Assembly (NCBI GenBank): GCA_046309815.1
Contig: JBKCOJ010000005.1
Location: 263,144 to 327,143, forward strand
Reading direction: 5' to 3'
DNA from: Pseudomonadota bacterium
Lineage (GTDB): Bacteria; Pseudomonadota; Alphaproteobacteria; Paracaedibacterales; CAITNM01
DNA length: 64,000 bases
The notes below the pieces were generated by a model. The model was not told the DNA's origin. It was given only the letters and a program-made list of their open reading frames with translations, and did no database searches. Shown in pieces: positions 2,795 through 41,093 of the stretch. A program made the position numbers and the translations under genes. Every line of letters begins with the position of its first letter. Position 1 is the stretch's first letter.

Positions 2795-4123
2795 ATGTCA
2801 CCTACAACACTGTCAAATGTTTATAAAGTTCAGTGGCATGAGGGAATGCTACTAAGCCCTCAGCACTTTCAATACAACGAACAAAGAATTGAGCAACTTC
2901 TTTACACACACCTGCTTTCTAATGCTTACACGTGCTGGGGTGTCTTAGAGCTCGATATTGATAAAAATTTATTAAATCAAGGTATTTTGGAGTTTACGCA
3001 CATTTTTGCAGTGTTACCGGACGGATCTGTTGTTCTTCACAGCCTAGACAATAAAAACACTGCATCGCAGAACACATCTCTTCGTTATAATTTAAATAGT
3101 CTAGAGCTCAAAAGTTCAACTGAAATTACTATTTGTTTATGCCTACACCAAACAACAGATAACAAAAAACGTTATGATTCAATTGAATACTCTAACATTA
3201 CAGATGAAAACAGCCCGGATAATGTTATTAATTTACCTATTTTGCGACCCAAAATTTTTCTCAATATAGGAGAGGTCCCAAATGAATGTGTAGGGTTTCC
3301 GATTATAAAGCTAGATTTTGATGGAAAGCAATTTTCTTTGCGACCATTTCTATCTGCATCTTTAAAAATACCGGAGAATCATGCAATTAGAAAAAATCTA
3401 GCAGAAATTACCTTAAATCTACGTCAAAAAGCCGCATATTTAATTAATAAATCACAACAAGTAACCTCGCCTTCCTTATTACGAGAAACATTGCAAACGC
3501 TAAAACCACTCATTTCTGCTCTTTGCATTCTTGAGCCAATAGCAACCATTGAAAAACTTCATCCTGAGCGCCTATTTGATCAATTACTAAACGTTGCCGC
3601 TCACTTGTTACCTCTTCAAACCACACAAATTCCTAAAGTTCTACCGACTTATAATCATTTCAATCCGAGCGATAGCTTGGATTATTTTTTAAATCTTTTC
3701 GAAAAAACAGTTTCATCTATTCAACAACGCTATTTAAGTATTCCATTTCATCAGCAAGAAAGATTGTTTTACTTACACATACACCCGAATTATCTAAACG
3801 ATGATTTGCATATAGGCTTCCGCTGTCCACCTGGCATGAGCGAAAAGCAAATGCATGATTGGGTACAAGAGTCAATTATCAGCGCTGACGAAAAAATTGA
3901 AGTCGTAACCACGAGGCGAATTTCCGGAGCACAAAGAACATTATTAAATAATGATCAACTAGGAGACTTAATACCAAATCCAGGGACCCTTATTTTTACT
4001 ATTAAAAAAGGAGATGAATTTATTAAGGCTAAAAATAATTTAAATATTTTTAATCCAGGAGATAGTCCAGAAAAAAGGCCTATAGATATCACCCTTTTTG
4101 TTTCGCAGAATGATTCTCCATGA
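2795..4123 (+). CDS. tssK: Type VI secretion baseplate protein TssK (ImpJ/VasE family)
   Basis: N-terminal VQWHEGMLLSPQHFQ signature of TssK. 442 aa, the typical size. Confidence 0.9.
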   Translation: MSPTTLSNVYKVQWHEGMLLSPQHFQYNEQRIEQLLYTHLLSNAYTCWGVLELDIDKNLLNQGILEFTHIFAVLPDGSVVLHSLDNKNTASQNTSLRYNLNSLELKSSTEITICLCLHQTTDNKKRYDSIEYSNITDENSPDNVINLPILRPKIFLNIGEVPNECVGFPIIKLDFDGKQFSLRPFLSASLKIPENHAIRKNLAEITLNLRQKAAYLINKSQQVTSPSLLRETLQTLKPLISALCILEPIATIEKLHPERLFDQLLNVAAHLLPLQTTQIPKVLPTYNHFNPSDSLDYFLNLFEKTVSSIQQRYLSIPFHQQERLFYLHIHPNYLNDDLHIGFRCPPGMSEKQMHDWVQESIISADEKIEVVTTRRISGAQRTLLNNDQLGDLIPNPGTLIFTIKKGDEFIKAKNNLNIFNPGDSPEKRPIDITLFVSQNDSP

Positions 4124-4920
4124 AAATGCTTAATCTCTTTCATCATGGCATCATAAGTACTGAATTTGACGCGTTCTATTATGAGCTATTGCGCGTGAAA
4201 GAAGCCGCTTTAAGAAGCAGCAGCGCTTCCCCTCTCGCAGCAGAAGAACAAATTGATGACCCAAAAACAATAACAGTATCTGGGCCAGTTTTGTCATTGC
4301 AAGAAAGAGTCGTTATTTTTTTTAATCAACAACGTGAAAAGCTTCATCGAGTTTCCATTGGTCCAAATGCAATTTTTATACAAGAAGCATTATATGTTTT
4401 TATCACATTGGCCGATGAAATCATGATAAATCTGCCTTGGCATGGGGCAGATTATTGGAGAAAAAATTGTCTAGAAACTAAAATCTTTCAAACACAAGTC
4501 GGTGGAGAAAAAATATTTACCCAAATAGATAGCCTTTTAAAAACTAACGATCCTCTTCAACGAGAGCTCGCTAGAGTTTATTTATTATCACTCTCCTTGG
4601 GATTTCAAGGTCGGTTTCGCGAACAAGATAATCATCAAATTCTTTCATATAAACAGCAACTATTCAGCTTTATCTATCATCGCTCGCCCAGATTGATTCA
4701 AGGTGGATATGATAATTTGCTCGATGATTCATTAATGTCTGTCTTCACAGAAACTCCCACAAAAGGGCTGCCAGATATACGACCATGGTCACTAGTCGCT
4801 CTCAGTGTCATAATCATCTATTTATTCGTAAGTTATGGGGTGTGGACTATTATCTCGCAAGATCTTCATGAAGTTCTTCAGGGTATTTTTCACCTTACAA
4901 AACAAGGCCCGGTAATCTAA
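4120..4920 (+). CDS. tssL: Type VI secretion membrane protein TssL (DotU/IcmH family)
   Basis: DotU core (LADEIMINLPW ... YLLSLSLGFQGRFR) followed by a single C-terminal TM helix (WSLVALSVIIIYLFVSYGVW). No peptidoglycan-binding extension. ATGA overlap with tssK. Confidence 0.85.
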   Translation: MKMLNLFHHGIISTEFDAFYYELLRVKEAALRSSSASPLAAEEQIDDPKTITVSGPVLSLQERVVIFFNQQREKLHRVSIGPNAIFIQEALYVFITLADEIMINLPWHGADYWRKNCLETKIFQTQVGGEKIFTQIDSLLKTNDPLQRELARVYLLSLSLGFQGRFREQDNHQILSYKQQLFSFIYHRSPRLIQGGYDNLLDDSLMSVFTETPTKGLPDIRPWSLVALSVIIIYLFVSYGVWTIISQDLHEVLQGIFHLTKQGPVI

Positions 4921-7900
4921 TGTCACCAACATTATTAAACTTTACTCAGTTTCTGGAAAGCCAAACAAGCAGCCTATCTGGTCTTATTTTTTTACTATTA
5001 TTTTTTGGCATTATCATTGCATTAATTTGTATCCTAGTTATCAACAAAAGCATCAGCAAAAGTAAGCCCATAAGTTTGGAAAAAAAAGGATCTCTTTTTA
5101 AAAGAGAGTTTTCTCTGCCTCCTCTTGGAGGCATCATTACAACCTTTTTGATAAGACATAAATGGATAGAAGTTAATTCTATTAGTCAAATTTTTCTAAA
5201 AGGTTTTGAGTTTTTAAAAAAACATCTAGGTGAAAACGCAGTATACATGCTCCCGTGGTATTTAGTGATTGGTGCAAAAAATTCAGGAAAATCCACACTT
5301 GTAAATCAAACCCAACTGCACGAACCTCACGGAAGTCCAGATTTTAGTTTGCACGAACCAAATCCATCTATTCGTTGGAAGTTTTTTAGTAGAGGCGTTC
5401 TTATCGACGTAGCAGGACGATTATTTTTAAATGATCCTGAAACCGAAACAGACACTAACTCCTGGCGCAATTTACTTATTTTGCTAGCCAGATACAGAGC
5501 AAAAAGGCCGTTAAACGGTATTATTCTTTGTATAAACGCGCAAGATCTTTATGGAAAGGAAAAACTAACTCCAGACGCACTACAAACTCGGGCTAACAAC
5601 ATATTGCATACTCTTAACAGAATGCAAAGTAGTCTATGCATGAGATTGCCTGTTTATGTAATGATTACTCATTGCGATATAATTCCCGGATTTCAATGCT
5701 TTTCACAAGAATTGCCATCAAAAAACAGAGAAAATATTCTAGGGTGGTCAAGTCCATATAACTTGCAATATATGTATTCCCCTAGCTGGATGGAGGAAGC
5801 ATTTCAATATCTTGATGAGAAAATAGATGGGTTGCGCACTGAATTGTTAAGTTCTGACATAAATCCAAATAATGCGGATAGCTTGTTTATCTTCTCAAAA
5901 GAACTTCTAACAATATCCGAAAATCTTGGCGGATATTTAAATCGTATTTTTCACAATAGCGTTGTTCATGAAGCCCCAATACTTAGAGGCATTTATTTTA
6001 CAGGTCATGAGTTTACAACTCTATCGGCTCCAAAAGATGAAGTATCAAAAATATCGTTAGAAGCACACAATAATAAATCCATCTCTCTTGTTTTTCTGAA
6101 AGATTTATTTCATTCAAAAATATTTTCAGAAATAGGGATAGCTAGGCCACTAGCTGGAAAAATAAGCCTACTGAATCGCGGTATCAATTTAATACGTGGA
6201 GCTACCATTTGCTTTGTGTTATTTGCCACGTATGGAATATTTAATTCTTATGATTCCTTTGGAGAAAAAAAAGAACGGATTTTGCCTGTTTTATCAAAAA
6301 TGAGTAGCCTGTTAAGAGATATGCAGCATCTGAAAATTGATGAACCCGGCCACTCGGCATCTCTTTTTGACACCTATGCGCGACAACTTCTAGAAATGAT
6401 GCAAGAACTTCAACGAACTGAGTTCTTTTCCGTAGCTATTCCAGCTTCTTGGTTCAGCCCTCTTCACAAAGACATCCATGTTAGTTTACAGGTTGCGTAT
6501 CAAGAGATTGTTATTCGAACAATTTACGTAGATCTATTAATGAAGGCTCGTGATTTATTGCAATTGCGACCATCCAGCGCTGATAGATCAAATTCATTAT
6601 CTGCACTTTTAAATCCATTATCATCAAGCGAATATCTTCTTTTGAAAAAATATGTAGAAGGCCTACATGAGCTAAATGATATGCTTTTTAAGTTTAATAA
6701 TCTAAAAAGCGCTCCTGATGCTAGAGATCTTGATAGCCTTGTGATGTATACATTTGGATCACATCTACCTGAGAGTTTCATTGGGCAGTATGCAGATTTT
6801 AGAAAACTATTGAACGAATCTTCATATCCTTTAATAGACCTAAAACCTTATCAACAAATGGCACGCCAAACCCTTTCTGTGCTTTATGAGAATTTTTTAA
6901 ACTCCCTGTTTTCTAAAAATGATCCACTAACATTAATGTCCCGCCTTCAAATTTTAATAGACCAATTACAAAGCCAGCAAGAAAGACGCTTAATTGAACT
7001 TACGAGCCTTAGGAATGCTGTGGGTGATTTAACTGCAACTCTTCCCTCATTAGGTGAGGCGGGATCAACCTGGATGGATGGAAAGAATTTTATGCCGGGA
7101 AAGGAATTCGACAAACTTTTAGATTATATAGATTTGTCTCCCCTTTTTGGAAAAGATGTTGGGCAGTATTTGGTTGATCAAACAGCCATAGGATTTAACC
7201 GTCTTAAGAGCTTTTTAGTCATAATTAATGAATCTTTGGCAGATAAAGGAATTAATCAAAAATCTCTGCCTTTATCACATGGCCTACTAAATCTAGGAAA
7301 ATGTCTTTCGTCTTTATTCAAATTCAGCTTTATGGGAGCCCCAACAGGAAAACCGCTAACAACTAAGATTCCCTCTGGAAAACTTGTATATTGGGACAAA
7401 AGTCTTGTTCAGGCGGCATATAATGCGATGAAAGATTTTGATGCTTTTATCAGTAAAGATTTACTCGAATACCCGCTTTCTATTCAAGAAAACATAAAAA
7501 TCGCAGCAAGAATAAATTTACAAGAAATCTTAGAGTCCTCCCTAGGAAAAGCCCAAACCTTTATTGACACACCAAAAGACATAAAGCCAGGAACTGAATC
7601 AGAAAGAATATTGAGAGCGCAAATTAATGACTTTAAAGCGGTTTCTGAAATCCTTGGTAAGCTATTAGAAATTTTGAAAAATGACGACGTTAGTAAAGCA
7701 TACATAGATCTTCGCAATATACTTTGCAACCAATCTCAGTGGCTGCTCTCACATATAGATATCTATACCAATCAGCATAAACCCTACAAAATGAAGTCGG
7801 ATGATTTTTCATGGTGGGATGGAAAATCTGGAGCAGCTATAGGAGCTTTCGCTGTTCGAGATGCCAATGATTTAAAGCACTATATAACCGTTCAAAGAGA

Positions 7901-9167
7901 GCTATTAATTGCTACCGTAAATGATTTTGCCAAACCAATTGTGGAGCTTCTAAAAAGCCCTGCTTTTGATAGTGCTGAAGATAGAGATGAAGCGCTTATA
8001 GAAAAATGGATAAGATTAACCGAGCAAGTAGAAAAATACGAAAAGAAACAACCAGACAATTCTTTAGCCCAACTAGAAAACTTTATCCTTAAAGATCTCA
8101 ATGCTAGCAATTACAAAGACATTCTTAAAATGCCTAATATTGAAGAGCTCAAAGAGCCTTCTGGTGATTATTTACTAGAAATATTGCGTGAAATTAAAAT
8201 AAAGCTTTTATCCAAGGCGGAAGTCTTGCAGCGCCAACATGCCATTATAAATTACAAAAAATTGGCTTCATTTTTCAACAAAAATTTGAAAGAAAAATTT
8301 CCATTTGTTGGAGTAACTCTTGATAAAAATTCAGGAGAAGCAAGTCCAGAAGATATTCGAGAGTTTTTCAACATCTTTAAAGAATGCGGAAATTCCACGA
8401 AAGAGATTTTAGATCAACTTTATCAAATTGGATCTGAAATGAAAGAAATTGTGCAATTTTTAATGGCTATGGAGGATGTCAAACAATTTCTTGATGCATA
8501 TTTAAAAGATCCCAATATCGACAAACCAACATTTAAAATAAATGTTGACTTCAGAATTGCCAGAGAAAAAGAAAAAGGCGGCAATATTATTGTTGATTGG
8601 TACTTAAAAACAGATGAAATAACAACAATCGATAAACATGACAAAAAGACAGAAGGCAGCTGGACATTCGGGAACCCAATAACAGTTGGTTTTAAGTGGC
8701 CAGAAACAGGAACATCACCTAAACCAACCTCAGACACCAATCAGCCATCCTTAAAAGTAGAGGGAGAAACAGCTGAATTTGTATATGACAGCCAGTGGGC
8801 GCTTTTGTGGTTGCTTCGCAATCATCTTGCCCCCAATGGCTCTTTTTCGAAGATAACAGACCCGAACCCATATGTATTAAAATTTAGCCTCCCCTTAACA
8901 GACCAAACCTTCACCACTGTATTTAATTCTGTTAGTCTTCTTGATTCTTCTGGCAAAAAAGGTGCGCCTAAAATTATTACTCTGCCGAAATTCCCAACTC
9001 TCGCGCCCAAACTGCCACAGGAAATAGAAGAAATAAAAGAGCAACCCATTTTAACAGAAGGAAAAGTTGAAGCGATAAGCTTTGAAGATTTAAGCGAGAA
9101 ACCAAAAAAACTGACTAAAGAAAGCCCCTCAGAAGAAGAAACAGAAGAAAAAGATGATGGTGAATAA
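4920..9167 (+). CDS. tssM: Type VI secretion membrane protein TssM (IcmF family), 1415 aa
   Basis: N-terminal TM helices, Walker A GAKNSGKST, LIDVAGR motif and a large IcmF-like periplasmic portion. The start overlaps the tssL stop by 1 nt. Confidence 0.9.
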   Translation: MSPTLLNFTQFLESQTSSLSGLIFLLLFFGIIIALICILVINKSISKSKPISLEKKGSLFKREFSLPPLGGIITTFLIRHKWIEVNSISQIFLKGFEFLKKHLGENAVYMLPWYLVIGAKNSGKSTLVNQTQLHEPHGSPDFSLHEPNPSIRWKFFSRGVLIDVAGRLFLNDPETETDTNSWRNLLILLARYRAKRPLNGIILCINAQDLYGKEKLTPDALQTRANNILHTLNRMQSSLCMRLPVYVMITHCDIIPGFQCFSQELPSKNRENILGWSSPYNLQYMYSPSWMEEAFQYLDEKIDGLRTELLSSDINPNNADSLFIFSKELLTISENLGGYLNRIFHNSVVHEAPILRGIYFTGHEFTTLSAPKDEVSKISLEAHNNKSISLVFLKDLFHSKIFSEIGIARPLAGKISLLNRGINLIRGATICFVLFATYGIFNSYDSFGEKKERILPVLSKMSSLLRDMQHLKIDEPGHSASLFDTYARQLLEMMQELQRTEFFSVAIPASWFSPLHKDIHVSLQVAYQEIVIRTIYVDLLMKARDLLQLRPSSADRSNSLSALLNPLSSSEYLLLKKYVEGLHELNDMLFKFNNLKSAPDARDLDSLVMYTFGSHLPESFIGQYADFRKLLNESSYPLIDLKPYQQMARQTLSVLYENFLNSLFSKNDPLTLMSRLQILIDQLQSQQERRLIELTSLRNAVGDLTATLPSLGEAGSTWMDGKNFMPGKEFDKLLDYIDLSPLFGKDVGQYLVDQTAIGFNRLKSFLVIINESLADKGINQKSLPLSHGLLNLGKCLSSLFKFSFMGAPTGKPLTTKIPSGKLVYWDKSLVQAAYNAMKDFDAFISKDLLEYPLSIQENIKIAARINLQEILESSLGKAQTFIDTPKDIKPGTESERILRAQINDFKAVSEILGKLLEILKNDDVSKAYIDLRNILCNQSQWLLSHIDIYTNQHKPYKMKSDDFSWWDGKSGAAIGAFAVRDANDLKHYITVQRELLIATVNDFAKPIVELLKSPAFDSAEDRDEALIEKWIRLTEQVEKYEKKQPDNSLAQLENFILKDLNASNYKDILKMPNIEELKEPSGDYLLEILREIKIKLLSKAEVLQRQHAIINYKKLASFFNKNLKEKFPFVGVTLDKNSGEASPEDIREFFNIFKECGNSTKEILDQLYQIGSEMKEIVQFLMAMEDVKQFLDAYLKDPNIDKPTFKINVDFRIAREKEKGGNIIVDWYLKTDEITTIDKHDKKTEGSWTFGNPITVGFKWPETGTSPKPTSDTNQPSLKVEGETAEFVYDSQWALLWLLRNHLAPNGSFSKITDPNPYVLKFSLPLTDQTFTTVFNSVSLLDSSGKKGAPKIITLPKFPTLAPKLPQEIEEIKEQPILTEGKVEAISFEDLSEKPKKLTKESPSEEETEEKDDGE

Positions 9168-20089: not shown

Positions 20090-21268
20090 TTAGAAGCCGT
20101 AGTGTAAACGAAGACCAGTTACGTAAGTTTTCAACTGACCACGAGCTGTGTAGTCAAATTGTAAGCTTCCAGACAATGCGTCATCATTTTTCACTTGTAA
20201 TCCAGCTCCACCACCAATTGCTGAGCGGTTAACTTTGTATGCAGCAGCAGTAGCAAATGTTACACCTTGGTTTTTCTTCACGTCATATTGGCCGTGAACG
20301 TTGATGAAAGGCATAACGCTTGGAGTCATTTGGTAACCAACTAACACTTTTGCAGTCGCAGTTTGCGCTTTAAAGGTATTTGATGGAACAGACATAGCGC
20401 TTCCATTGTAAGCTGCTTGCTGTGATTTTTCTGTAAATTTATCCATTTTGCTTTGCATCATCAAGTAACCAAGTTGCAAGTTAAAGGATGTTTTGTTTAC
20501 TTTGTTTACAAAGTTAGCAAATACACCACCAAACATTGCTTTTGCTTTTGGTGTGCAAGTAAATGTGTTGTCGATGTAGTTTACAACGCCAGCAGCGTTT
20601 GTTTGTTGAGTGGTAATCCAACGACGACTGTCATTTCCTTTTGTTGTGCTCCAACCACCAACAAATTCAAAGTTGAAGTTTTTGTGTGGAACGATAATAA
20701 AGTAAGGATTCACACCCAGTGTGTCTTGTTTCATTTTACCATTGTTAAACTCAGTTCTTGCATCCAAATGTGAATAGCTTAAACCTAAACCAGCGCAGAA
20801 CATGTTGTTAAATTTATAGTCTGCTCCAACCATTGTTAGATAGGATTGACCATTCCAAGCTTGTCCTGTAACTGAGTTATCAATGGCGCCATAGCTTACG
20901 CGTAACCAAGTAGAAGCTTTGTGAGCAGATCCTGATGAACCAGCAATTTTTGTTCCTGTATCAGCACCCAAAGCCCCCGCATTTGATCCACTGCCATTCA
21001 TTGCTTCAGCAGCTTCTGCTGTTACGGCGCTAACTAAACCAAGAATCTTGGTTACCTTAACAGCCATAACTGTTGGTTCAGTAACAACGGCACCAGGGGT
21101 TGTTGCAACGGAACTATAAGCATAATAACCTGCAGCTTTAGTTACGCCAGTAGGTGCAACAGGAGCGCTAGTTGGAGTACCACCACTTGGAGGGGCGAAC
21201 AAATAGCCACTTCCAGTCACTGCAGCAACAAACGCAAGCGTTCTTGCCGTCTTAAATTGTTTAAACAT
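20090..21268 (-). CDS. Outer-membrane beta-barrel protein, autotransporter-beta-domain-like with short Ala/Gly/Thr-rich N-terminal region
   Basis: Signal peptide, alternating beta-strand pattern and a terminal aromatic residue (LRLHYGF). The segment WLRVSYGAIDNS...GADYKF resembles autotransporter barrels. Confidence 0.6.
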   Translation of the reverse strand: MFKQFKTARTLAFVAAVTGSGYLFAPPSGGTPTSAPVAPTGVTKAAGYYAYSSVATTPGAVVTEPTVMAVKVTKILGLVSAVTAEAAEAMNGSGSNAGALGADTGTKIAGSSGSAHKASTWLRVSYGAIDNSVTGQAWNGQSYLTMVGADYKFNNMFCAGLGLSYSHLDARTEFNNGKMKQDTLGVNPYFIIVPHKNFNFEFVGGWSTTKGNDSRRWITTQQTNAAGVVNYIDNTFTCTPKAKAMFGGVFANFVNKVNKTSFNLQLGYLMMQSKMDKFTEKSQQAAYNGSAMSVPSNTFKAQTATAKVLVGYQMTPSVMPFINVHGQYDVKKNQGVTFATAAAYKVNRSAIGGGAGLQVKNDDALSGSLQFDYTARGQLKTYVTGLRLHYGF

Positions 21269-21431: not shown

Positions 21432-23369
21432 ATGGCATTCCTACAACGAAACTTTTTCATTCTTTTAATTTTTTTTTCTTTTGTGCCTATTATTTGGCCA
21501 ACGGGAATTTTTCAAGAATCCGATTGGGCAATTTTTGGTCTTTGGTTTATCGCTGGCTTTTATGCTCTCATTTTTCCAAGGGAGGTAAAAATATCCCCCC
21601 TAGCTCTAGGATTTCTTTTTCTAGCAGCTTTTAGCTTGTTTGGGGTTTTGCAAAATAATCTAACTTCAATTGGCGGCATTAACGAAATACGAGAAGGAAC
21701 AGCCACATCTTTGGCTTTAGCCATATTAATTGTAGTAGGGCGACAAGCTAACATGCAAAGCCTTCCATTGTGGATAGCACCAATATTGTATGGGCTTATA
21801 ACGGTAGCAGGCTGTCATGGTTTACTTCATTTAAAGACGTACATTTTTCTTGATATCTCTGCCTTTCCAATGTTAGCAAGCATTCCGCTTTATGTGAAAT
21901 TTCGCCAATCTCTACTTCGGTTTCAATATCTATGGGATAGCACATATGTTATCGCGTTTTTATTTTTATTAAAGTATTGCGATAATGTGGCAGCTATTAT
22001 TGCCAGCTTATGCGCTTTTATTTTTGTTTTTCTATTACCTTTTGCAAAAAGGTGTATGAAATTTTTGCCTAAGCAAGATGGTCTCTACGTTATTTTCGGT
22101 TTATGGCTGATTGCTATGATGGTTCTTGTCTCATGGAATTTCTTTTCTCATCTGATACCTCAACTACAAAGTCGCACATTGCTTGGAATCGTTTCCGTGT
22201 TTCAATATTTTGATCATTTTAATTGGTCAAAGCTTTTTCATGCTCTTTTTGGGTATGGGTGGGGGAGCTATCAGGAATTTCCAGTTCTTAATCTCTTCAG
22301 ACTAGAAGATTTTTCAATGTACGTGGATGGAAAGTTTAATCCAAATTGGGAATTTCTAGAGCGCAACCTCTTGCATACCCATAATTTAATCTTGGAATCA
22401 TTTGTTTCGTCGGGCTTATTAGGTACAGGTCTCTTATTGGCGGTCATCTATAAATGGGTAAATAATATTGATATCAAAGATTGGTCAGGTCGTTTCTTTG
22501 TTGTCAGTTATTTAATTTTACTCAGTGCATGGTTTCAAACACCTCCGGTTTTAATTTTTTCATTATTTGCCATGGTATGCATTCAAGAAAAAGATTCTTA
22601 TCAACTAAAATTACCTCGCTTTGTTTGGGTTTCTTGCGGAATATTTTTAATGGTATTTTCTTGTGTAGAATTTTGGTCTTCCATTTCCCTTAATAAGCAT
22701 AAATTTAAAACCATTCAAACATTTGAGGAAGATGTTTCAGCATTTGTTAACGATCCGGCTCATTCTTATGATAAATGGAGCACGTATAAAGGATCTAATT
22801 GGACCATTGGTTGGTTTACACAGGGATTAAATACTATCACTAAAGCTGATACCAAATATCTGCTGGATGTTGAAAAAGCCATTGTACAGATTACAAAAGA
22901 TTATCTTGATTCTTGCCAAAAGCGTAATGTTGTTAGTTCAGTCCACGTTATTAACATGTGCAATACATTTGCTAGTTTGCAACAAGTAAGAATTTCGAAA
23001 GACTCAGAATTTTTTGTGAATTTTAAAAAGGCCGTTTTAGAGCATATAAAAAGATTTCCTGAACGTTCAGATATGGCAATTGGTTTTTTAAACATATGTT
23101 TTGATAAATTAGAGGATATCAGAGAAGTGAGTGAAATTGCCGATGCTATTTTAGTAGCATTTCCAAATCATTCGGTTGGTCTTTGGTTCGAAGGGCTTTC
23201 TGATTTAAGCTTAGGTAACAACAAAGCGCAGGCTGTTGAAAAGATGCGGCAGGCAGTGAATCTTGGACTTAATCGGTATATGCCGGTTCCAACAGAGCTT
23301 CTACAAGAGTTGGGAGTGCAACAGCAAGCAAATACCATCAATAAAAAAGTTAAACATGCGATTAAATAA
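21432..23369 (+). CDS. O-antigen ligase/Wzy_C-like polytopic membrane protein with C-terminal TPR-like domain
   Basis: At least 10 TM helices. The loop LLHTHNLILESFVSSGLLG resembles the Wzy_C/PglL motif. Soluble helical C-terminal half. A paralog lies at 62998..64000. Confidence 0.6.
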   Translation: MAFLQRNFFILLIFFSFVPIIWPTGIFQESDWAIFGLWFIAGFYALIFPREVKISPLALGFLFLAAFSLFGVLQNNLTSIGGINEIREGTATSLALAILIVVGRQANMQSLPLWIAPILYGLITVAGCHGLLHLKTYIFLDISAFPMLASIPLYVKFRQSLLRFQYLWDSTYVIAFLFLLKYCDNVAAIIASLCAFIFVFLLPFAKRCMKFLPKQDGLYVIFGLWLIAMMVLVSWNFFSHLIPQLQSRTLLGIVSVFQYFDHFNWSKLFHALFGYGWGSYQEFPVLNLFRLEDFSMYVDGKFNPNWEFLERNLLHTHNLILESFVSSGLLGTGLLLAVIYKWVNNIDIKDWSGRFFVVSYLILLSAWFQTPPVLIFSLFAMVCIQEKDSYQLKLPRFVWVSCGIFLMVFSCVEFWSSISLNKHKFKTIQTFEEDVSAFVNDPAHSYDKWSTYKGSNWTIGWFTQGLNTITKADTKYLLDVEKAIVQITKDYLDSCQKRNVVSSVHVINMCNTFASLQQVRISKDSEFFVNFKKAVLEHIKRFPERSDMAIGFLNICFDKLEDIREVSEIADAILVAFPNHSVGLWFEGLSDLSLGNNKAQAVEKMRQAVNLGLNRYMPVPTELLQELGVQQQANTINKKVKHAIK

Positions 23370-30853: not shown

Positions 30854-31759
30854 TTATTTCTCTAACATTCTTACTGCGTTCTGGGATTTCTGTATTAAAC
30901 TTGTGAATATATGTTGGGCAATTTGCTCCATTACGCCTGATGCCATAAGTTCAGCCAATAACCCTTCAATATTGTCTTCGGTGTATTTTGCTTTTATTTC
31001 CATTGCTTCTTGGATATTCGTTAGGAGTTCATCATCTTGGTCTTCAACACGCTGTATGTCTGCCAATTTATCGTGATATTTTGTTAAAAGTGCTTTTTGA
31101 GCGGCTGTTGCTAAGGCACTTGCTTGCTCAGAAGCTTCATCTGCTCCTGTAGCTGAGCTGTCTAGTTTCATAATGGCTTCGAATAAAGCCTGAACTTCTG
31201 CATCAAAATCGTTGCCTGACAGACTAACGGTATCACCTTCATCATTAATATAAACAGTGATTGATCCAGAGACTGGCGCACTATAATCTACTGGTGATCC
31301 GCTATATGCAGCAAATGTTGTTGCATTTTTCATAGGGGGGTTCTGTGTTGCAACCCCACCCATGGCATATTCGCCAGATATTGCATTGGAAATGATGCCA
31401 ATGTCATGGAAAGAACTTTTTATGCTTTCTTTTATTGCGTCCAGTCCAGGACGTGTTCCTCCCATTGTGTAGCTTCCAGGCGCAAACTCACTCCGAATTT
31501 TTTCAGCTAGCCCAAGGTATTTATCAATTGCAAAAAGTTGGGATTTTAGACGATCTCCCACAAGAGCATTTCCTTGTTGAAATCCTTCAAGGCGCTTGAT
31601 TCTATTTGTTTCGGTAATGCTAACATCAATCTGAGAGGTAGTTTTCCCGGAATAAAAAATCTTTGTTCCTCCAGCCGCAAGCCTTTCGCTAATGTCATGA
31701 CTTTTTTGACGAGCGCCTCGCATTTGATCGACTATAGAGCCTAAATTACTAATACTCAT
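30854..31759 (-). CDS. flgL: Flagellar hook-associated protein 3 (FlgL), divergent
   Basis: Lies immediately downstream of flgK, is 301 aa and has helical termini. Sequence motifs are weak. Confidence 0.6.
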   Translation of the reverse strand: MSISNLGSIVDQMRGARQKSHDISERLAAGGTKIFYSGKTTSQIDVSITETNRIKRLEGFQQGNALVGDRLKSQLFAIDKYLGLAEKIRSEFAPGSYTMGGTRPGLDAIKESIKSSFHDIGIISNAISGEYAMGGVATQNPPMKNATTFAAYSGSPVDYSAPVSGSITVYINDEGDTVSLSGNDFDAEVQALFEAIMKLDSSATGADEASEQASALATAAQKALLTKYHDKLADIQRVEDQDDELLTNIQEAMEIKAKYTEDNIEGLLAELMASGVMEQIAQHIFTSLIQKSQNAVRMLEK

Positions 31760-33737: not shown

Positions 33738-34157
33738 CTATACCATATGCTGTACACCAAGACTTGGTGCATAGGAGGTTTTAAAGAATTTTCCGAATGA
33801 GTTATAAAATGTCGGCTTAATTCGTACTTTTTCAAAATACATATCCATCAGTTTTTTGTTGCCTCTGCCGGAAAGATCCAACAGGTCAAGATTCTTTTGC
33901 ATGGCCTTAGTGATGATTTTGAGTAATTCATCTACCTTTTGTTTTTGCGATTTTTCTAATTGTTGCCAGCATGTCGGATCAAGTATTTGATTAGCAAAAA
34001 GCTGATTGCTTTTAAAAAGTTCTGCCTTTTTTTGCAATAAGGAATCTAATTGTGTAAGCCTTGTATCATTTAAATATTGCTCTTCCATTTGCATTACTTG
34101 CAAAAGGCTTTCAGCAGTAGCACAAAAATTTTGATATATTTCAGAGTAAGACATCAA
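33738..34157 (-). CDS. flgN: FlgN-like flagellar export chaperone (tentative)
   Basis: 139-aa helical Gln/Leu-rich protein directly upstream of flgK. The call is by position only. Confidence 0.4.
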   Translation of the reverse strand: MMSYSEIYQNFCATAESLLQVMQMEEQYLNDTRLTQLDSLLQKKAELFKSNQLFANQILDPTCWQQLEKSQKQKVDELLKIITKAMQKNLDLLDLSGRGNKKLMDMYFEKVRIKPTFYNSFGKFFKTSYAPSLGVQHMV

Positions 34158-34506
34158 CAGCCTCCCTCTTTTCTTCGGTTGAATGAGATTCGAAAGCTGG
34201 GTTAGTAAAACGGTTTTCTTCAGTGTTATATAAGCTTTTAGCTACGGCTTTTTTAATGTTAAGAGAGCTGGATCCTCCGGCATTAGCCATAACCTCGATG
34301 AACATGGAACGTAAAATTCCAGACGCATGGCTTTCTCCCCAGATAGCGCTATCTTCCGTTGTTTTAAACATTTCTTTTACCATGCTCGCATAACACATAG
34401 CCTCAAAATCGCTAGCAACTTTTTCAACGTCGTCAGGAGCATGAACAAGACCATTCATCCTGTGGATGGATGCTTGAGAATTTATAACAGAAACATCAAC
34501 GGACAT
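34141..34506 (-). CDS. flgJ: Rod-binding protein (FlgJ N-terminal domain type, no muramidase domain)
   Basis: The FEAMCYASMVKEMFKT motif of the rod-binding family. A short single-domain form is usual in alphaproteobacteria. Downstream of flgI. Confidence 0.7.
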   Translation of the reverse strand: MSVDVSVINSQASIHRMNGLVHAPDDVEKVASDFEAMCYASMVKEMFKTTEDSAIWGESHASGILRSMFIEVMANAGGSSSLNIKKAVAKSLYNTEENRFTNPAFESHSTEEKREAVDVLL

Positions 34507-34509
34507 AAT

Positions 34510-36120
34510 CTAACTCACTCTAATGTCGGCATGTAATGCACCGGCTGCTTTGACACCTTGCAAAATCTGTGCCGTCTCTCGTGGGGTCGTTCCAAGAAGA
34601 CTTAATGCTTTTACTAGCTCTTCGAGATCTACACCAGTATCTAAAACCACAAACTTATTTTTTTGCTCATCAAGCTTAACTTGCGTCTCTGGAATAATTG
34701 CTGTTTGAGGCGATGAATTGAGCACTGCAGTTGTTAAAGGTGATGGCGCAGTCTGCTGCGATGGCTGTGTAGATGGAGCCGTTGTGGTTTGAGCAGCAGG
34801 GGAAGGAATAGCATTTATTGCTAGCGCCATTTGTTGAGGTGTTGCCGTTGCAGGAAAAGCCACTAAGGCTGCGGCAATTTGGGTAGGGGGAACGCCAGTA
34901 GGTATAACGCTCACGGCAGCAGGTCCTCCTGGTACTCCATTTCCTGCAATGCTACTTATTGTCGCAGCGATGGTTGCTGTGGTTGCATTTGCTGGCAATG
35001 AATATAAAGCATCTCGTAATTGAGTAGGAGTTGTATTCTGCGGAATAGTCGCTGTGATAGGAACACCGTTATTTGCTACCGGTTGTGTAGGTGCTTGGGC
35101 AACCGTTGGTACCAATGTGGGGGCTCCAGGTTGTTGAGTATTAGCCGTTGGTGTAAGAGCTGGCATACTGGGATTCACTACCTGAGTAAATGGATTGGGC
35201 TGCGAAACAGCCGCTGACTCAGTAATGCGCACCGATATGGAGCCATGCGTTAAAGCAACAGGGCTTATACGAACTTTGCTACCTAGAACAATAACCCCTG
35301 CTGGATCAATAATAACCCTAGCTACTTGATCAGGTTCAATTTCAAGTTGCTCTATTTGTGTCATTGCTTCGATAATTTTTTCTGAAGATCCTTTAGGTAG
35401 TTCAACATGAATACCGGCCGAATCCTTTGCGGAAGCGACGGGGCGCTCAAAGTGTGTATTTATTGCCTCTGCAACACGTTTTGCAGTTGTAAGATCTGGA
35501 CTTCTTAAGTTTAATGTTTGAGATTTTAAATCAGTAAGCTGGAATACAATTTCTTTTTCTACGATTGCGCCATTAGGAATTTTCGCCGTAGTTGGTAGTC
35601 CTGTTATTTGAGAAGCCGCTGTGCCAATAACAGATACTCCAGAAGGTAACACTTCTCCCTGCGCAACAGCGTAGACTTCACCATCAGCCGCAATTAATGG
35701 AGTTACAAGCAGCGTACCTCCGTTTAAATCTTTTGCATCGCCTAGCGCCGAGACAACCACATCAATTGTCGTTCCAGTGTGGGCAAATGGAGGTAGATTA
35801 GACGTTACCATTACTGCAGCAACATTTTTTCCAGAGGGCAGGCTGTTGTCGCGAATATTAACGCCCAAGCGTTCAAGCATGGAGGTTAGGCTTTCTTTGG
35901 TATAAGGTGAGTTTGAAAGCGTATCGCCGGTGCCGTTGAGGCCTACTACTAAACCATAACCAACCAATTGGTTATTACGAATGCCTGAGAAATTAGCAAT
36001 ATCTTTAATGCGAACCTTTAAATTAGATTTAGATATAGCTTTTTCTGCCTTAATTTTTAAGTTTTCGGCATTGAGGCTTAAGTTGCAGAGCAAAAATAAT
36101 ATGAGACCAAAAAAACGCAT
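34510..36120 (-). CDS. flgI: Flagellar P-ring protein FlgI with a large internal low-complexity insertion
   Basis: Signal peptide. Conserved RIKDIANFSGIRNNQLVGYGLVVGLNGTGD and C-terminal LVKALSLLGTTPRETAQILQGVKAAGALHADIRV. It is 536 aa, against about 365 aa in typical FlgI. Confidence 0.9.
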   Translation of the reverse strand: MRFFGLILFLLCNLSLNAENLKIKAEKAISKSNLKVRIKDIANFSGIRNNQLVGYGLVVGLNGTGDTLSNSPYTKESLTSMLERLGVNIRDNSLPSGKNVAAVMVTSNLPPFAHTGTTIDVVVSALGDAKDLNGGTLLVTPLIAADGEVYAVAQGEVLPSGVSVIGTAASQITGLPTTAKIPNGAIVEKEIVFQLTDLKSQTLNLRSPDLTTAKRVAEAINTHFERPVASAKDSAGIHVELPKGSSEKIIEAMTQIEQLEIEPDQVARVIIDPAGVIVLGSKVRISPVALTHGSISVRITESAAVSQPNPFTQVVNPSMPALTPTANTQQPGAPTLVPTVAQAPTQPVANNGVPITATIPQNTTPTQLRDALYSLPANATTATIAATISSIAGNGVPGGPAAVSVIPTGVPPTQIAAALVAFPATATPQQMALAINAIPSPAAQTTTAPSTQPSQQTAPSPLTTAVLNSSPQTAIIPETQVKLDEQKNKFVVLDTGVDLEELVKALSLLGTTPRETAQILQGVKAAGALHADIRVS

Positions 36121-36191: not shown

Positions 36192-37556
36192 TTAAATGCT
36201 ATTTTTAATGTCTGTATAGTTTTCTTCAGGGCGGAAAACCTCAACGGGCAATCCTAATCCTTCAGCAGTGAGCTTTCCTTGTAAAGAAAGAATCTGATAC
36301 AGATAAAAATAATACTGTTGAATAGTATTAATTTGGTCGAGCTTTGCTTGCAAAAGTTGAGCTTGAGCGTTTAACACATCCACTAAGATTTTTGTGCCTA
36401 CCTGCATTTCTTGGGTGACACCATCTACAGCTATTTCTTGGGCTTTCACTTGCTTGGAGGAATTTTGCATGTTGCTTTTTATTGCAACAAAAGCCATATA
36501 CATTTGTTTGCAGCTTTGAATAATTTCTTGTCGCACTTTTTCAAAGGCAATGCGTTTTGCAACGATAGTTTTTTTTGTTTCTCTGTACTGAGAACGAGTT
36601 ACTCCAGCATCGTATAGAGGGACGGTCAGATTAAGGCTAACTTCATCGCTTCGTTGATTTCTAGTAGGATTTGTAATGGAGTCAACGTTGTTTGTCCCCG
36701 CACTATTTTTATTAAAGCTTTGAGAACTTGCAGCTTGAAAATCAAGAGAAGGTAATAATTTTCCAGTAACAACTTTCTTATTTTGTTTCGCAGAAGAAAT
36801 ATCTTCTTGAGCTTGCTTTATTTTTGGATTTTCTCTGAGGGCTACTTCTTGCAGTAAATCCATTGATTGCGGTGCTTCCAATAGTTCCTTTGGTTGCTCA
36901 ACGCGTTCAGGAGCTGCAAGACCTGTTAGTTGCTCAAAAGAAGCCTTAGCACCTTCTAAATCAGCAAGTCCAAGCTGTAATTTTGATTGAGCTTCCACAT
37001 ATTTTGCTTCAGCTAGCGATTCTTGGGTAATTGTTTCTTCCCCTATTTCACGTTTTGCTTTTGCTGCTTCATAATTTTTCTGCATAAACGCAAAATTTGC
37101 TTTATATACTTCAACGCTTGCATATTTTGCATACAAGTCTAAATAAGCCTTGATAACCTTTAGAAAAATCTCTTGCTCTGTGCTTTTTAATTGGGCCCAT
37201 TGTCCCATGATATCGTGTTCAGTTTTAGAAACAGAGGCAGCATCGGCGAAACCTCTAAAAATATTTTGCGTAAGGACTATATTACCTTTTCGATTTTTGT
37301 CCTTACTGCTCACAGTAGGTGAGCTAGCGCCTCTGCTTGTTTTGCTATTAGCAACCGATGCCGTTGCTCCTGCCTTAATTTCAGGCCGAAATCCGCCTTT
37401 TGCCTGCACGATTTTCTCGTGTGCAGCAAGCATTGATTCACGAGTCGCCAGCAATTCTTGGTTGTTTTTATAAGCCGAAGCGAGGGCATCCCTTATATTT
37501 ACGGCGTGCCCGGATGTGCTAATTAATGTAATTAAAAGAAGATTATAAAATTTCAT
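36192..37556 (-). CDS. tolC: TolC-family outer membrane efflux protein
   Basis: Signal peptide, the N-terminal IRDALASAYKNNQELLA motif and duplicated OEP-type helical repeats. 454 aa. Confidence 0.85.
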   Translation of the reverse strand: MKFYNLLLITLISTSGHAVNIRDALASAYKNNQELLATRESMLAAHEKIVQAKGGFRPEIKAGATASVANSKTSRGASSPTVSSKDKNRKGNIVLTQNIFRGFADAASVSKTEHDIMGQWAQLKSTEQEIFLKVIKAYLDLYAKYASVEVYKANFAFMQKNYEAAKAKREIGEETITQESLAEAKYVEAQSKLQLGLADLEGAKASFEQLTGLAAPERVEQPKELLEAPQSMDLLQEVALRENPKIKQAQEDISSAKQNKKVVTGKLLPSLDFQAASSQSFNKNSAGTNNVDSITNPTRNQRSDEVSLNLTVPLYDAGVTRSQYRETKKTIVAKRIAFEKVRQEIIQSCKQMYMAFVAIKSNMQNSSKQVKAQEIAVDGVTQEMQVGTKILVDVLNAQAQLLQAKLDQINTIQQYYFYLYQILSLQGKLTAEGLGLPVEVFRPEENYTDIKNSI

Positions 37557-39522: not shown

Positions 39523-39719
39523 TTAATAAAATCACAAAATAAAGTAATTATATATTAATCAATAAAAATTTATACTTTGTTAATAATTATAAAATATATA
39601 GATATTCTTTATTTAAATTTTATTAGTTGCAGTTGTCCGATTTTTTGTATTTTTAACTATTATTTAATGTTTTTGATTTAAAAATGAATATTAATATATT
39701 GTTCCAAGTAGGTATTATT

Positions 39720-41093
39720 ATGAACGTATCAAAGTCTTTTTTATTGCTTAGTGTTACATTAGGTTTGTCTCAAGCATCTTTTGCTGGAGAGCATATGGAA
39801 GTTCCTGTAACTCAGGATTTTCAATTTTCTCAAGGTGAAGTAGGTGTTCCTTCTGAAGTGGCACAAGAAAACCTCCTAAAGCAGGAAGAGCAAGTTCAGC
39901 CTATGGTAATCCCTGAGGGGCATTCTATGATGAGCGAAATGCCAGCCTCTGCTTTTGATGGGCAGCAAATGATGCATACAGAATCTGCTCAACCTATGGA
40001 TAATCCTCAAGTGCAGATGATGAACGAAGAACAAGTTCAGTCTATGGGAATGCCAGGTACACAAGCAGAACTTGTAAATCAACAGATGATGAGTGAAATG
40101 CCTTTAATTGCAAATCATCAGCTTGAGGAATCTCATAATCCTGCCGTTATCCCTTCTGTAGTTGATAATCCTGTTGCTTTAGAAGTAGCCCCTCCCTCTC
40201 TTACTGCGCAAGAAAAAGTGGCAGAAGCAATGGAGGAACTGAAAGAAAAGAAACTTGAAGAAGCGCAACAAGAAGCGTTGTTGAATAACGACGTGGTATC
40301 AGAAGAATCTTTAGTTGCCGCTCCTGCTAAAAAGAAAAAAGCAGGAAAGAAGAAATTGACAGCTGAAGAGATCCAAGCATTAAAGGCAGCTGGTGCAGAA
40401 AAAACTTTAGCTAGAACTGCAGCTCGTAAAGAAGCAGAGGATGCTAAAAAGCTTGAGCAAAAAATAAATGCTGAGCAAGTTGAAGAAAATATGACAGCAG
40501 CTCCTTTATTAACAGAAGAATCTTTAGCTGCTGCTCCTGCGAAAAAGAAAAAAGCAGGAAAGAAGAAATTGACAGCTGAAGAGATCGGAGCATTAAAGGC
40601 AGCTGGTGCAGAAAAAACTTTAGCTAGAGCTGTAGCTCGTAAAGAAGCAGAGGATGCTAAAAAGCTTGAAGAGAAAATAGAGCTTGAGCATCTAGCTGAA
40701 GAGGTTCAACATCACGAGGAAGGATCTGCTGTAGCTATTAGCGGTTCAGCACACACACAAAACCCATTTGCAGTGTTGTTTTTTACCCCAGAAGAAGCAG
40801 TTGATCTCCAAAGAACTATAAATGAAGGAGCTGCTTTTAATAATAAAAAAATGGATTCAGTAGTAATCGTTGTTGATCCGGCAAAAGGTGAAAACGATGA
40901 TATTGCTGCTAAAGAAGAAAAACAAGAGCCAGCTATTGTGGTAGGTACTCCTGCTGGGCCAGAAGTCAATTTTGAAGCAGAAGTATCTAAAAATGGAGAT
41001 GCTGTTGCGTCAAAAGAGGGCATGGATCAGAAAGACCCGGCGTCTGTTGCCGAAATTCCTGGTGAACATCAGCAAGAAATAGCTGCCCAGTAA
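39720..41093 (+). CDS. Secreted repeat protein: Met/Gln-rich N-terminal region and duplicated Lys/Ala/Glu-rich module
   Basis: Signal peptide [22 protein letters not shown]. The module [49 protein letters not shown] occurs twice. No recognised family. Confidence 0.6.
40302..40679 (+). repeat. Two 165-bp direct repeat copies (40302..40466 and 40515..40679, period 213 bp) inside the coding sequence
   Basis: Hand alignment shows about 11 mismatches in 165 bp. The copies are in frame and encode the duplicated Lys-rich module. Confidence 0.9.

Follow-up and report, generated by a model that had tools for sequence, protein, structure and literature searches.

The window analysed here, a stretch of 64,000 nucleotides from an alphaproteobacterial contig (JBKCOJ010000005.1), encodes a flagellar P-ring protein, FlgI, that carries 160 residues at a point where solved FlgI structures have 3. 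By alignment, this insertion sits exactly at the tip of the GateI hairpin, the midpoint of the GateI-homologous segment, at the base of the P-ring. Modelling with AlphaFold2 (AF2) predicts that it consists of a compact two-repeat module of ~90 residues between two disordered, almost uncharged Pro/Thr/Gln/Ala tethers of ~40 and ~30 residues. Judged from the proteins available for comparison, the module is an orphan domain that is found in no described family and is confined to one uncultured clade related to the Holosporales. Within this clade, strains with a near-identical FlgI core, linkers and neighbouring genes carry old, highly divergent alleles of the module, which preserve its fold and have been exchanged by recombination. 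We tentatively propose that the modules form a tethered collar around the rod which plugs the closed gate and may be exposed outside the cell.

The insertion lies within a conserved FlgI

The initial annotation of this gene, made from the sequence alone, had described an insertion of about 160 residues within a FlgI of 536 residues. This was borne out by comparison with five solved FlgI sequences (Vibrio cholerae 9yec/9ydo, 8z5n, Salmonella 7bgl, 9iyc), which align to residues 31–310 and 471–532 and leave residues 311–470 between them. The interval that the annotation had given to the insertion, window positions 34705–35187, corresponds to residues 312–472. All of its landmark strings lie where it had placed them, with VSQPNPF at residues 305–311, TAIIPETQVKL at 473–483 and the C-terminal string at 502–535. 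The N-terminal block pairs residues 31–310 with V. cholerae FlgI 14–292 and residues 36–310 with Salmonella FlgI 20–296, and the C-terminal block aligns to V. cholerae 296–357 and Salmonella 300–363.

The remainder of the protein resembles FlgI throughout. The Pfam FlgI profile (PF02119) is matched in two stretches with a score of 400.8 bits, its cut-off being 25.3; profile positions 1–286 cover residues 37–321. FlgI entries of the PDB match the gene product with E-values down to 2.9e-74. Moreover, a full-length AF2 model, built as a monomer on an 83-sequence alignment, matches the FlgI chains of the LP-ring structures 8z5n, 7bgl, 7nvg and 7cbl (Foldseek E 7e-26 to 6e-25, probability 1.00), with template modelling (TM) scores that are reduced because of the insertion and the flexible arrangement of the domains. 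In this model the C-terminal part comprises a strand (474–485) and two helices (499–508 and 513–525). K98 and K130 align with Lys82 and Lys114 of Salmonella FlgI (precursor numbering; Lys63 and Lys95 in the mature protein) and are nearly invariant in the 83-sequence alignment. Lastly, FlgI is a Sec-exported protein (PMC8298488), and the N-terminus MRFFGLILFLLCNLSLNA probably represents a Sec signal peptide. We conclude that the protein is a bona fide FlgI and, as far as its sequence can tell, that the gene is a functional flgI.

The identical 536-residue protein is encoded on at least 23 independently assembled contigs (JGI, ENA, NCBI and Logan), which stem from independent samples and assemblers, and six of the flgI genes, aligned to the window, are identical but for one synonymous difference. 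Therefore, the insertion is not an assembly artefact or a frameshift, a doubt that the initial annotation had itself raised. The reading frame is unbroken, with conserved FlgI sequence on both sides of the insertion, and at least 55 homologues have the same architecture. The sole item noted in favour of an artefact, whether through misassembly, a frameshift or the fusion of two genes, is a local rise in GC content (0.47–0.53 over the insertion compared with about 0.40 in the flanks); this is accounted for by Ala, Pro, Thr and Gly codons, and there is next to no chance that the long FlgI arose in such a way.

Position in the P-ring

The function of the GateI segment is known from an in-situ study of V. 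cholerae, in which GateI comprises FlgI residues H274–K314 (bioRxiv 10.64898/2025.12.02.691832, a 2025 preprint). In the assembled motor it is partly disordered and bent down round the rod. After ejection of the rod it swings by ~90 degrees into a long beta-hairpin and closes the P-ring, yielding an iris that keeps a lumen of ~40 Å (~4 nm). Where GateI was replaced with a Gly-Ser linker, P-ring assembly was stalled in ~45% of motors (all bioRxiv 10.64898/2025.12.02.691832). In the window protein, residues 292–310 and 471–489 align with V. cholerae 274–292 and 296–314, such that residue 310 corresponds to V. cholerae 292 and residue 471 to V. cholerae 296, and AF2 predicts strands at 295–306 and 474–485. 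This alignment places the insertion at the tip of the hairpin.

The insertion is therefore met on the inner, rod-facing side of the ring and not on the outer rim, the attachment site of disk, H-ring and T-ring proteins. In Salmonella, it is uncharged, Thr-rich residues that bring the P-ring closest to the rod (PMC8298488). The initial annotation had envisaged an extra domain borne by every P-ring subunit, which we judge to be correct, and had likened its role to that of the separate disk proteins of other lineages. The latter comparison holds in that there is a lineage-specific addition on every subunit; however, the location at the inner base beside the rod renders the analogy a loose one.

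Two tethers and a duplicated module

The AF2 model divides the insertion into a disordered segment (residues 308–351, predicted local distance difference test (pLDDT) <50), a folded segment (352–441, pLDDT 72–88) and a second disordered segment (442–473, pLDDT <50). When the module is modelled alone, again as a monomer and on 21 sequences, it reaches a pLDDT of 79.5 and a predicted TM-score of 0.70, and its secondary structure is unchanged. The insertion as a whole is composed of 19% Ala, 17% Thr, 16% Pro and 9% Gln, and 2 of 159 residues are charged; across the repeat-bearing proteins the charged fraction is 0.6–7%, mostly about 1–2%. No open reading frame (ORF) of 80 residues or more in the window overlaps it on the opposite strand.

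Selection acts very differently on the parts. Ratios of non-synonymous to synonymous substitution rates (dN/dS; Nei-Gojobori method, window gene and three relatives) are 0.01–0.05 in the core, 0.08–0.12 in the repeats and 0.4–0.8 in the linkers, which shows the repeats to be constrained as a folded domain is and the linkers to be spacers that evolve almost freely. Thus the folded module keeps its fold, under purifying selection and with a conserved hydrophobic pattern. The block had been described as low-complexity sequence at the outset. That description is apt for the two flanking tethers, but not for the central ~90 residues with their predicted fold and low dN/dS.

Conservation is likewise uneven along the insertion. 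Mean pairwise identity is 0.83 for residues 307–320 and 0.45 for 321–351 in and around the first tether, and 0.64 for residues 459–473 at the end of the second. The region of the connector between the repeats (392–400) is the most variable stretch of all, at 0.23, and also varies in length in the alignment. Two short motifs border the tethers, with FTQVVNP(L)ANNPGAP heading the first and PSMMNAALNSNTPLQQAT closing the second; relatives without the repeat module conserve them as well.

An internal, degenerate duplication had been claimed from inspection of the translated sequence, and both tests of it agree. Within the single sequence the evidence is modest: self-alignment scores 77, shuffled sequences average 49.9 (z 3.3), and 2 shuffles out of 300 do as well. 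At the level of the family it is decisive, as a comparison of the repeat-1 and repeat-2 profiles gives an HHalign probability of 98.8% (E 9e-17) over all 42 columns. Two repeats are detectable in every relative with a long insertion. A tandem-repeat search found no tandem repeat at the DNA level; the duplication can be seen in protein and profile comparisons only and is therefore old. The two repeats of one protein are 36% identical, and each repeat region averages 52–56% pairwise identity across the clade; on these figures we rejected concerted evolution between the repeats. One relative (P0043, 598 residues) has an insertion of 205 residues, in which two normal repeats are followed by a third, degenerate and more charged unit (AIPPGLDPTQRAAAIAAAKRLADGL).

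An orphan module at an insertion hot spot

To place the module among known proteins, its profile was compared with 1.84 billion representative proteins. It retrieved only FlgI proteins or FlgI fragments of the same clade and a single non-FlgI protein (P0128), which is a spurious translated tandem repeat. There was no match to Pfam (best E 0.016), nor to the PDB by profile search (best E 4.2) or by Foldseek (best E 1.9); weak Pfam matches to Flagellin_IN (E 0.14), Mur_ligase_C and Calici_coat were dismissed as chance. Likewise, no Pfam or PDB match connects the module to FlgT, FlgP or MotX/MotY. A hidden Markov model search of all six frames found no second copy in the window, and literature searches found no description of an insertion in FlgI at the GateI tip.

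Among the 120 best database relatives of this FlgI, the insertion at the GateI tip is between 2 and 205 residues long. About 55 of these relatives, 56–93% identical overall, have an insertion of the same kind (146–205 residues). Of the remainder, some carry 30–156 residues of unrelated sequence at the same point and many have 2–3 residues. The unrelated insertions were drawn from proteins P0054–P0119, which are more distant relatives, and are of several types: Asn/Gln-rich uncharged segments of 65–156 residues (152–156 in P0068, P0070 and P0083), charged segments of 100–150 residues (15–35% charged) that look helical or coiled-coil-like, and short extensions of 30–50 residues. A protein from a metagenome-assembled genome labelled Holosporales (P0104) has a segment of 125 residues at this tip, 35% of them charged. 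Taken together, these alignments show the GateI tip to be a general insertion hot spot in Holosporales-related lineages.

Most FlgI proteins have nothing of the sort. A generic FlgI scan, for which the back-translated patterns proved too generic, returned 80 loci that were all ordinary alphaproteobacterial FlgI; in the 78 alphaproteobacterial genomes that it provided as a baseline, 74 have 2–3 residues at the site. The view that typical FlgI is without the insertion, and that the region is absent from the majority, is thus upheld. The organism itself is an uncultured Holosporales-like alphaproteobacterium: the named organism closest by its Obg GTPase (71% identity) is Candidatus Finniella inopinata, a member of the Paracaedibacteraceae, Holosporales.

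Divergent module alleles on near-identical backbones

The closest relative of the window is a locus (L087) whose flgI gene, at L087:6001–7614, encodes P0002. Over a neighbourhood of 13 kb the two are 99.3% identical at the DNA level, but identity falls to 72–77% at window positions ~34800–35300, a stretch that runs from the end of tether 1 through repeat 1 into the start of repeat 2. Transitions predominate among the substitutions that separate the two loci, and the spectrum is symmetrical (G>A 16, A>G 16, T>C 15, C>T 14). We considered whether the tract is the target of a diversity-generating retroelement and rejected this, since the spectrum is symmetrical with no adenine-specific bias and the divergence reaches into the conserved core with synonymous differences. 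A second, small tract also differs between these loci (window 35659–35796, residues 109–154), with 15 synonymous differences and one replacement, Q154E. It falls within the conserved D1/IRU domain, where it closely precedes the GateII-equivalent loop, and looks like a separate recombination import.

The same pattern is found in a second subclade, represented by four strains (L090–L093). These are 95–100% identical in the flgI core and in the flgJ-like, flgK, flgL-like and fliW genes, but only 57–66% identical in the centre of the insertion. Core dS is 0.14–0.23 and core dN at most 0.008, compared with a module dS of 0.8–2.0 and dN of 0.27–0.51 (dN/dS 0.2–0.5); module dS is thus 5–14 times that of the core, and in one pair the module exceeds the core in synonymous differences with a Fisher p of 4e-11. 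Both disordered linkers are 85–100% identical in this subclade and the folded module between them is 44–61% identical. Protein pairs whose cores are 100% identical (333 residues) share 44% of their module residues. Moreover, 16 FlgI proteins with cores at least 97% identical fall into six module classes, with identity between classes below 70%, and one module class (P0021 and P0033, 92% identical) is common to core lineages that differ more than that.

The elevated dS of the module on near-identical backbones indicates that old alleles have been moved by recombination. The pattern is that of exposed, antagonistically selected loci, and it is the reverse of the usual rule whereby linkers evolve faster than domains.

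Possible roles of the module

The tethered collar that we tentatively put forward would work as follows. In a running motor, GateI would point down along the rod, and its 26 tethered modules would surround the rod beneath the P-ring as a loose, uncharged collar or sleeve; the position of the tip, the tethers and the near absence of charge all fit such a collar. Were the rod lost, or not fully built, GateI would swing by ~90 degrees inward to form an iris. Since all 26 GateI tips converge on closing, the modules would be gathered at the centre and would fill the hole that measures ~4 nm in Vibrio. Relics of unsheathed flagella have an outer-membrane discontinuity over a plugged P-ring base, and the plug would therefore face the open L-ring pore, making the module reachable from outside the cell. 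Such exposure would account for the evolution of the module, which is like that of a surface antigen or phage target.

A narrower version, which we think rather improbable as it stands, would have the module act as the face of the gate or plug, exposed via the open L-ring pore in relics or assembly intermediates and held under balancing or frequency-dependent selection by an external antagonist, such as a flagellotropic or relic-binding phage, a predator or a protist host. A TolC-like protein is encoded beside flgI and, in those same strains, varies in its presumed surface loops; it might be caught up in this arms race too.

A number of points speak against the collar and its exposure. The AF2 models are of monomers, and we infer ring packing, the side of the iris and exposure alike. 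The 26 modules and their tethers amount to ~450 kDa, far beyond the mass needed for a 4 nm hole. Gating by GateI has been shown in V. cholerae only, and the residual density there was ascribed to peptidoglycan (bioRxiv 10.64898/2025.12.02.691832). The hypervariability could reflect co-evolution with a periplasmic partner and not exposure to the outside; moreover, an elevated dS shows the import of alleles and not by itself diversifying selection, module dN/dS being 0.14–0.5. The proposal also presumes that the organism has unsheathed flagella that are shed. Finally, related lineages have quite different insertions, charged and coiled-coil-like or Asn/Gln-rich, and no single function is implied for all of them.

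Of the alternatives, the one that survives best is that the module is a permanent structural decoration only, a periplasmic ring or sleeve under the P-ring which stabilises or spaces the rod and P-ring, for example in a wider periplasm, with neither gating nor exposure. Its variability would then stem from co-evolution with, or indifference to, periplasmic partners. GateI in the open state does embrace the rod, the surface of the module is uncharged like the rod-proximal loop of the P-ring, and by our own estimate 26 modules at a radius of ~8 nm would have ~19 Å each, making side-by-side packing feasible. We nevertheless hold this to be on the unlikely side. A ring subunit that packs against 25 identical neighbours and a conserved rod should be conserved, whereas the module is the most variable part of the locus, and the long disordered tethers argue against a rigid ring.

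It is also doubtful that the insertion is a tolerated passenger, that is, that the GateI tip is a permissive loop which collects functionless low-complexity or small helical segments under weak constraint and with occasional recombination. Neutral drift cannot give 35–40% divergence where the surrounding DNA differs by 1–5%, and the site is not indifferent, given that loss of GateI in Vibrio impairs assembly. The two-repeat architecture, the length and the hydrophobic pattern are kept in at least 55 proteins down to 56% overall identity, the repeats have a dN/dS of 0.08–0.12 within the subclade of the window, and the flank motifs are conserved. A passenger is, however, what one might read from the unrelated insertions of 30–205 residues at the same site in related lineages and their absence from most FlgI, from the failure to detect any known domain in the module and from the almost neutral evolution of the tethers.

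Tethered binding modules are typically small domains that a long linker rich in Pro and Thr (PT-type) connects to a catalytic or structural core. The FlgI module could accordingly bind peptidoglycan, stator units or another component of the envelope, as if a MotX/MotY T-ring or FlgT had been built into FlgI, and the motors of other lineages do add stator scaffolds at the P-ring. This we regard as very unlikely: attachment is at the inner, rod-facing base and not at the outer rim where MotY and FlgT bind, the module is unlike any known peptidoglycan-binding or other family, and a binding site for a conserved ligand is not expected to be hypervariable.

Nearly all of the flagellar motor diversity known so far consists of extra proteins added to conserved rings; here it is the P-ring protein itself that has gained a domain. 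With 26 tethered domains that would converge where Vibrio leaves a hole of 4 nm, these bacteria provide a natural experiment on the gate, and the insertion is relevant to the identity of the plug in flagellar relics. That a folded periplasmic module should be hypervariable in the manner of a cassette, between linkers that are conserved, was unexpected; it suggests that something outside the cell sees a part of the basal body. If the reading of an exposed gate were true, the module would be the first component of the flagellar basal body bushing to behave like an antigen and to be swapped as a cassette.

Genomic neighbourhood

The features of flgI and of the genes around it are collected in Table 1. 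Downstream of flgI lie a gene for a rod-binding (FlgJ-like) protein (34141–34506; 21 bits against a Pfam cut-off of 25.1, below threshold), flgK and fliW, and flhB and fliR are found in the same window. The synteny of flgI is kept in eight related loci. A scan for promoters and terminators around flgI was uninformative, and there is no terminator-like site between flgI and the TolC-like gene upstream of it.

Table 1. Coordinates of flgI, the parts of its product and neighbouring genes (window positions unless a related locus is named; residues are those of the 536-residue FlgI)
Feature	Position	Strand	Basis and remarks
flgI ORF, P-ring protein	34510..36120	-	536 residues and stop codon; ORF list, Pfam PF02119, PDB matches, Foldseek
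Probable Sec signal peptide, residues 1–18 (MRFFGLILFLLCNLSLNA)	36067..36120	-	N-terminus hydrophobic on inspection of the sequence
Conserved FlgI N-terminal part, residues 37–310	35191..36012	-	Alignment to solved FlgI; includes rod-facing lysines K98 and K130
Ascending GateI strand, residues 295–306 (ISVRITESAAVS)	35203..35238	-	AF2 strand; aligns with V. cholerae ~277–288
Insertion, residues 311–470 (160 residues), tip of GateI hairpin by alignment	34711..35190	-	Solved FlgI structures have 3 residues here
Tether 1, residues 311–351	35068..35190	-	First ~10 residues (FTQVVNP...) conserved, remainder Pro/Thr/Gln-rich; predicted disordered
Repeat 1 of predicted folded module, residues 352–393	34942..35067	-	Strand 355–359, helices 365–373 and 381–389; AF2, HHalign, dN/dS
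Connector between repeats, residues 394–398	34927..34941	-	Gly/Pro-rich; variable in sequence and length
Repeat 2 of predicted folded module, residues 399–440	34801..34926	-	Strand 402–406, helices 412–419 and 428–436; AF2, HHalign
Tether 2, residues 441–470	34711..34800	-	Thr/Pro/Gln/Ser-rich; predicted disordered; conserved end motif PSPLTTAVLNSS (PSMMNAALNSNT in relatives)
Conserved FlgI C-terminal part, residues 471–536	34513..34710	-	Descending GateI strand 474–485 and two C-terminal helices; alignment, AF2
TolC-like outer-membrane efflux protein (Pfam OEP)	36192–37556	-	Precedes flgI by 71 bp on the same strand; so arranged in all related loci examined
TolC-like gene in relatives	L090:3626–4996, L091:4558–5928, L092:4558–5928		
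139-residue ORF, FlgN position	33738–34157	-	Overlaps the end of the rod-binding gene and precedes flgK; conserved, without Pfam match
301-residue ORF, FlgL position	30854–31759	-	Between flgK and fliW; conserved, without Pfam match

The TolC-like protein of strains L090, L091 and L092 has two hypervariable patches, at residues ~55–100 and ~255–320, and is conserved in the remainder. These patches are the only nearby segments as variable as the FlgI module in the same strains. We assume that they lie at the barrel strands and surface loops of the TolC family, in which case they are probably exposed.

In one of these strains, the sigma-factor and PCMT genes that otherwise lie upstream of the rhodanese-OEP-flgI block have given way to a phage-type integrase and unrelated genes (L091:2663–3850), a synteny break that may be due to insertion of a mobile element near the locus. 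Elsewhere, the window encodes type VI secretion components at 2795–10321 (+; TssK/VasE-like, a 1415-residue TssM/IcmF-like and TssA/ImpA-like), an autotransporter beta-domain protein at 20090–21268 (-) and a secretin at 60406–62172 (-). Two long ORFs, of 645 residues at 21432–23369 and of 469 residues at 39684–41093, have no Pfam match.

Comparison with known systems

With canonical FlgI (PF02119; Salmonella 7BGL/7CLR, V. cholerae 9YEC/9YDO) the protein shares the three core domains, the rod-facing lysines, both GateI strands and, probably, the Sec-type N-terminus, and its gene stands beside the rod-binding FlgJ-like gene, flgK and fliW. It differs at the tip of the GateI hairpin, where the 3 residues of canonical FlgI are replaced by 160, which are predicted to form an orphan, duplicated strand-helix-helix module and two disordered tethers. 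Set against the GateI and GateII loops of V. cholerae, the insertion lies at the midpoint of GateI with conserved strands on both sides; however, the tip in Vibrio is a tight turn and the closed iris has a lumen of ~40 Å (bioRxiv 10.64898/2025.12.02.691832), whereas here each blade bears a predicted tethered domain.

The accessory rings that are added to the LP-ring in trans, namely the H-ring of FlgT, FlgP and FlgO, the T-ring of MotX and MotY and the basal disks, resemble the insertion in being lineage-specific extra mass with the symmetry of the P-ring. Unlike the insertion, which is built into FlgI at the inner base beside the rod, they consist of separate proteins on the outer face of the P- and L-rings. 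The tethers recall the Pro/Thr-rich interdomain linkers of secreted bacterial multidomain proteins in their Pro/Thr/Ala/Gln/Ser composition, near lack of charge, predicted disorder and fast evolution. Here, though, the two linkers make a loop that leaves and re-enters the tip of a hairpin, and do not join domains end to end.

Lastly, the central domains D2 and D3 of flagellin are hypervariable, surface-exposed and flanked by conserved assembly domains. These and other surface cassettes have in common with the FlgI module that a variable module is set in a hairpin between conserved polymerisation domains and exists as divergent alleles with high dS. The differences are that FlgI is periplasmic in the assembled motor and that its module is smaller, at ~90 residues. 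By analogy, therefore, it is the variable central domains of flagellin that the module would most resemble in its evolutionary behaviour, and the trans-acting disk, H-ring and T-ring proteins that it would resemble least.

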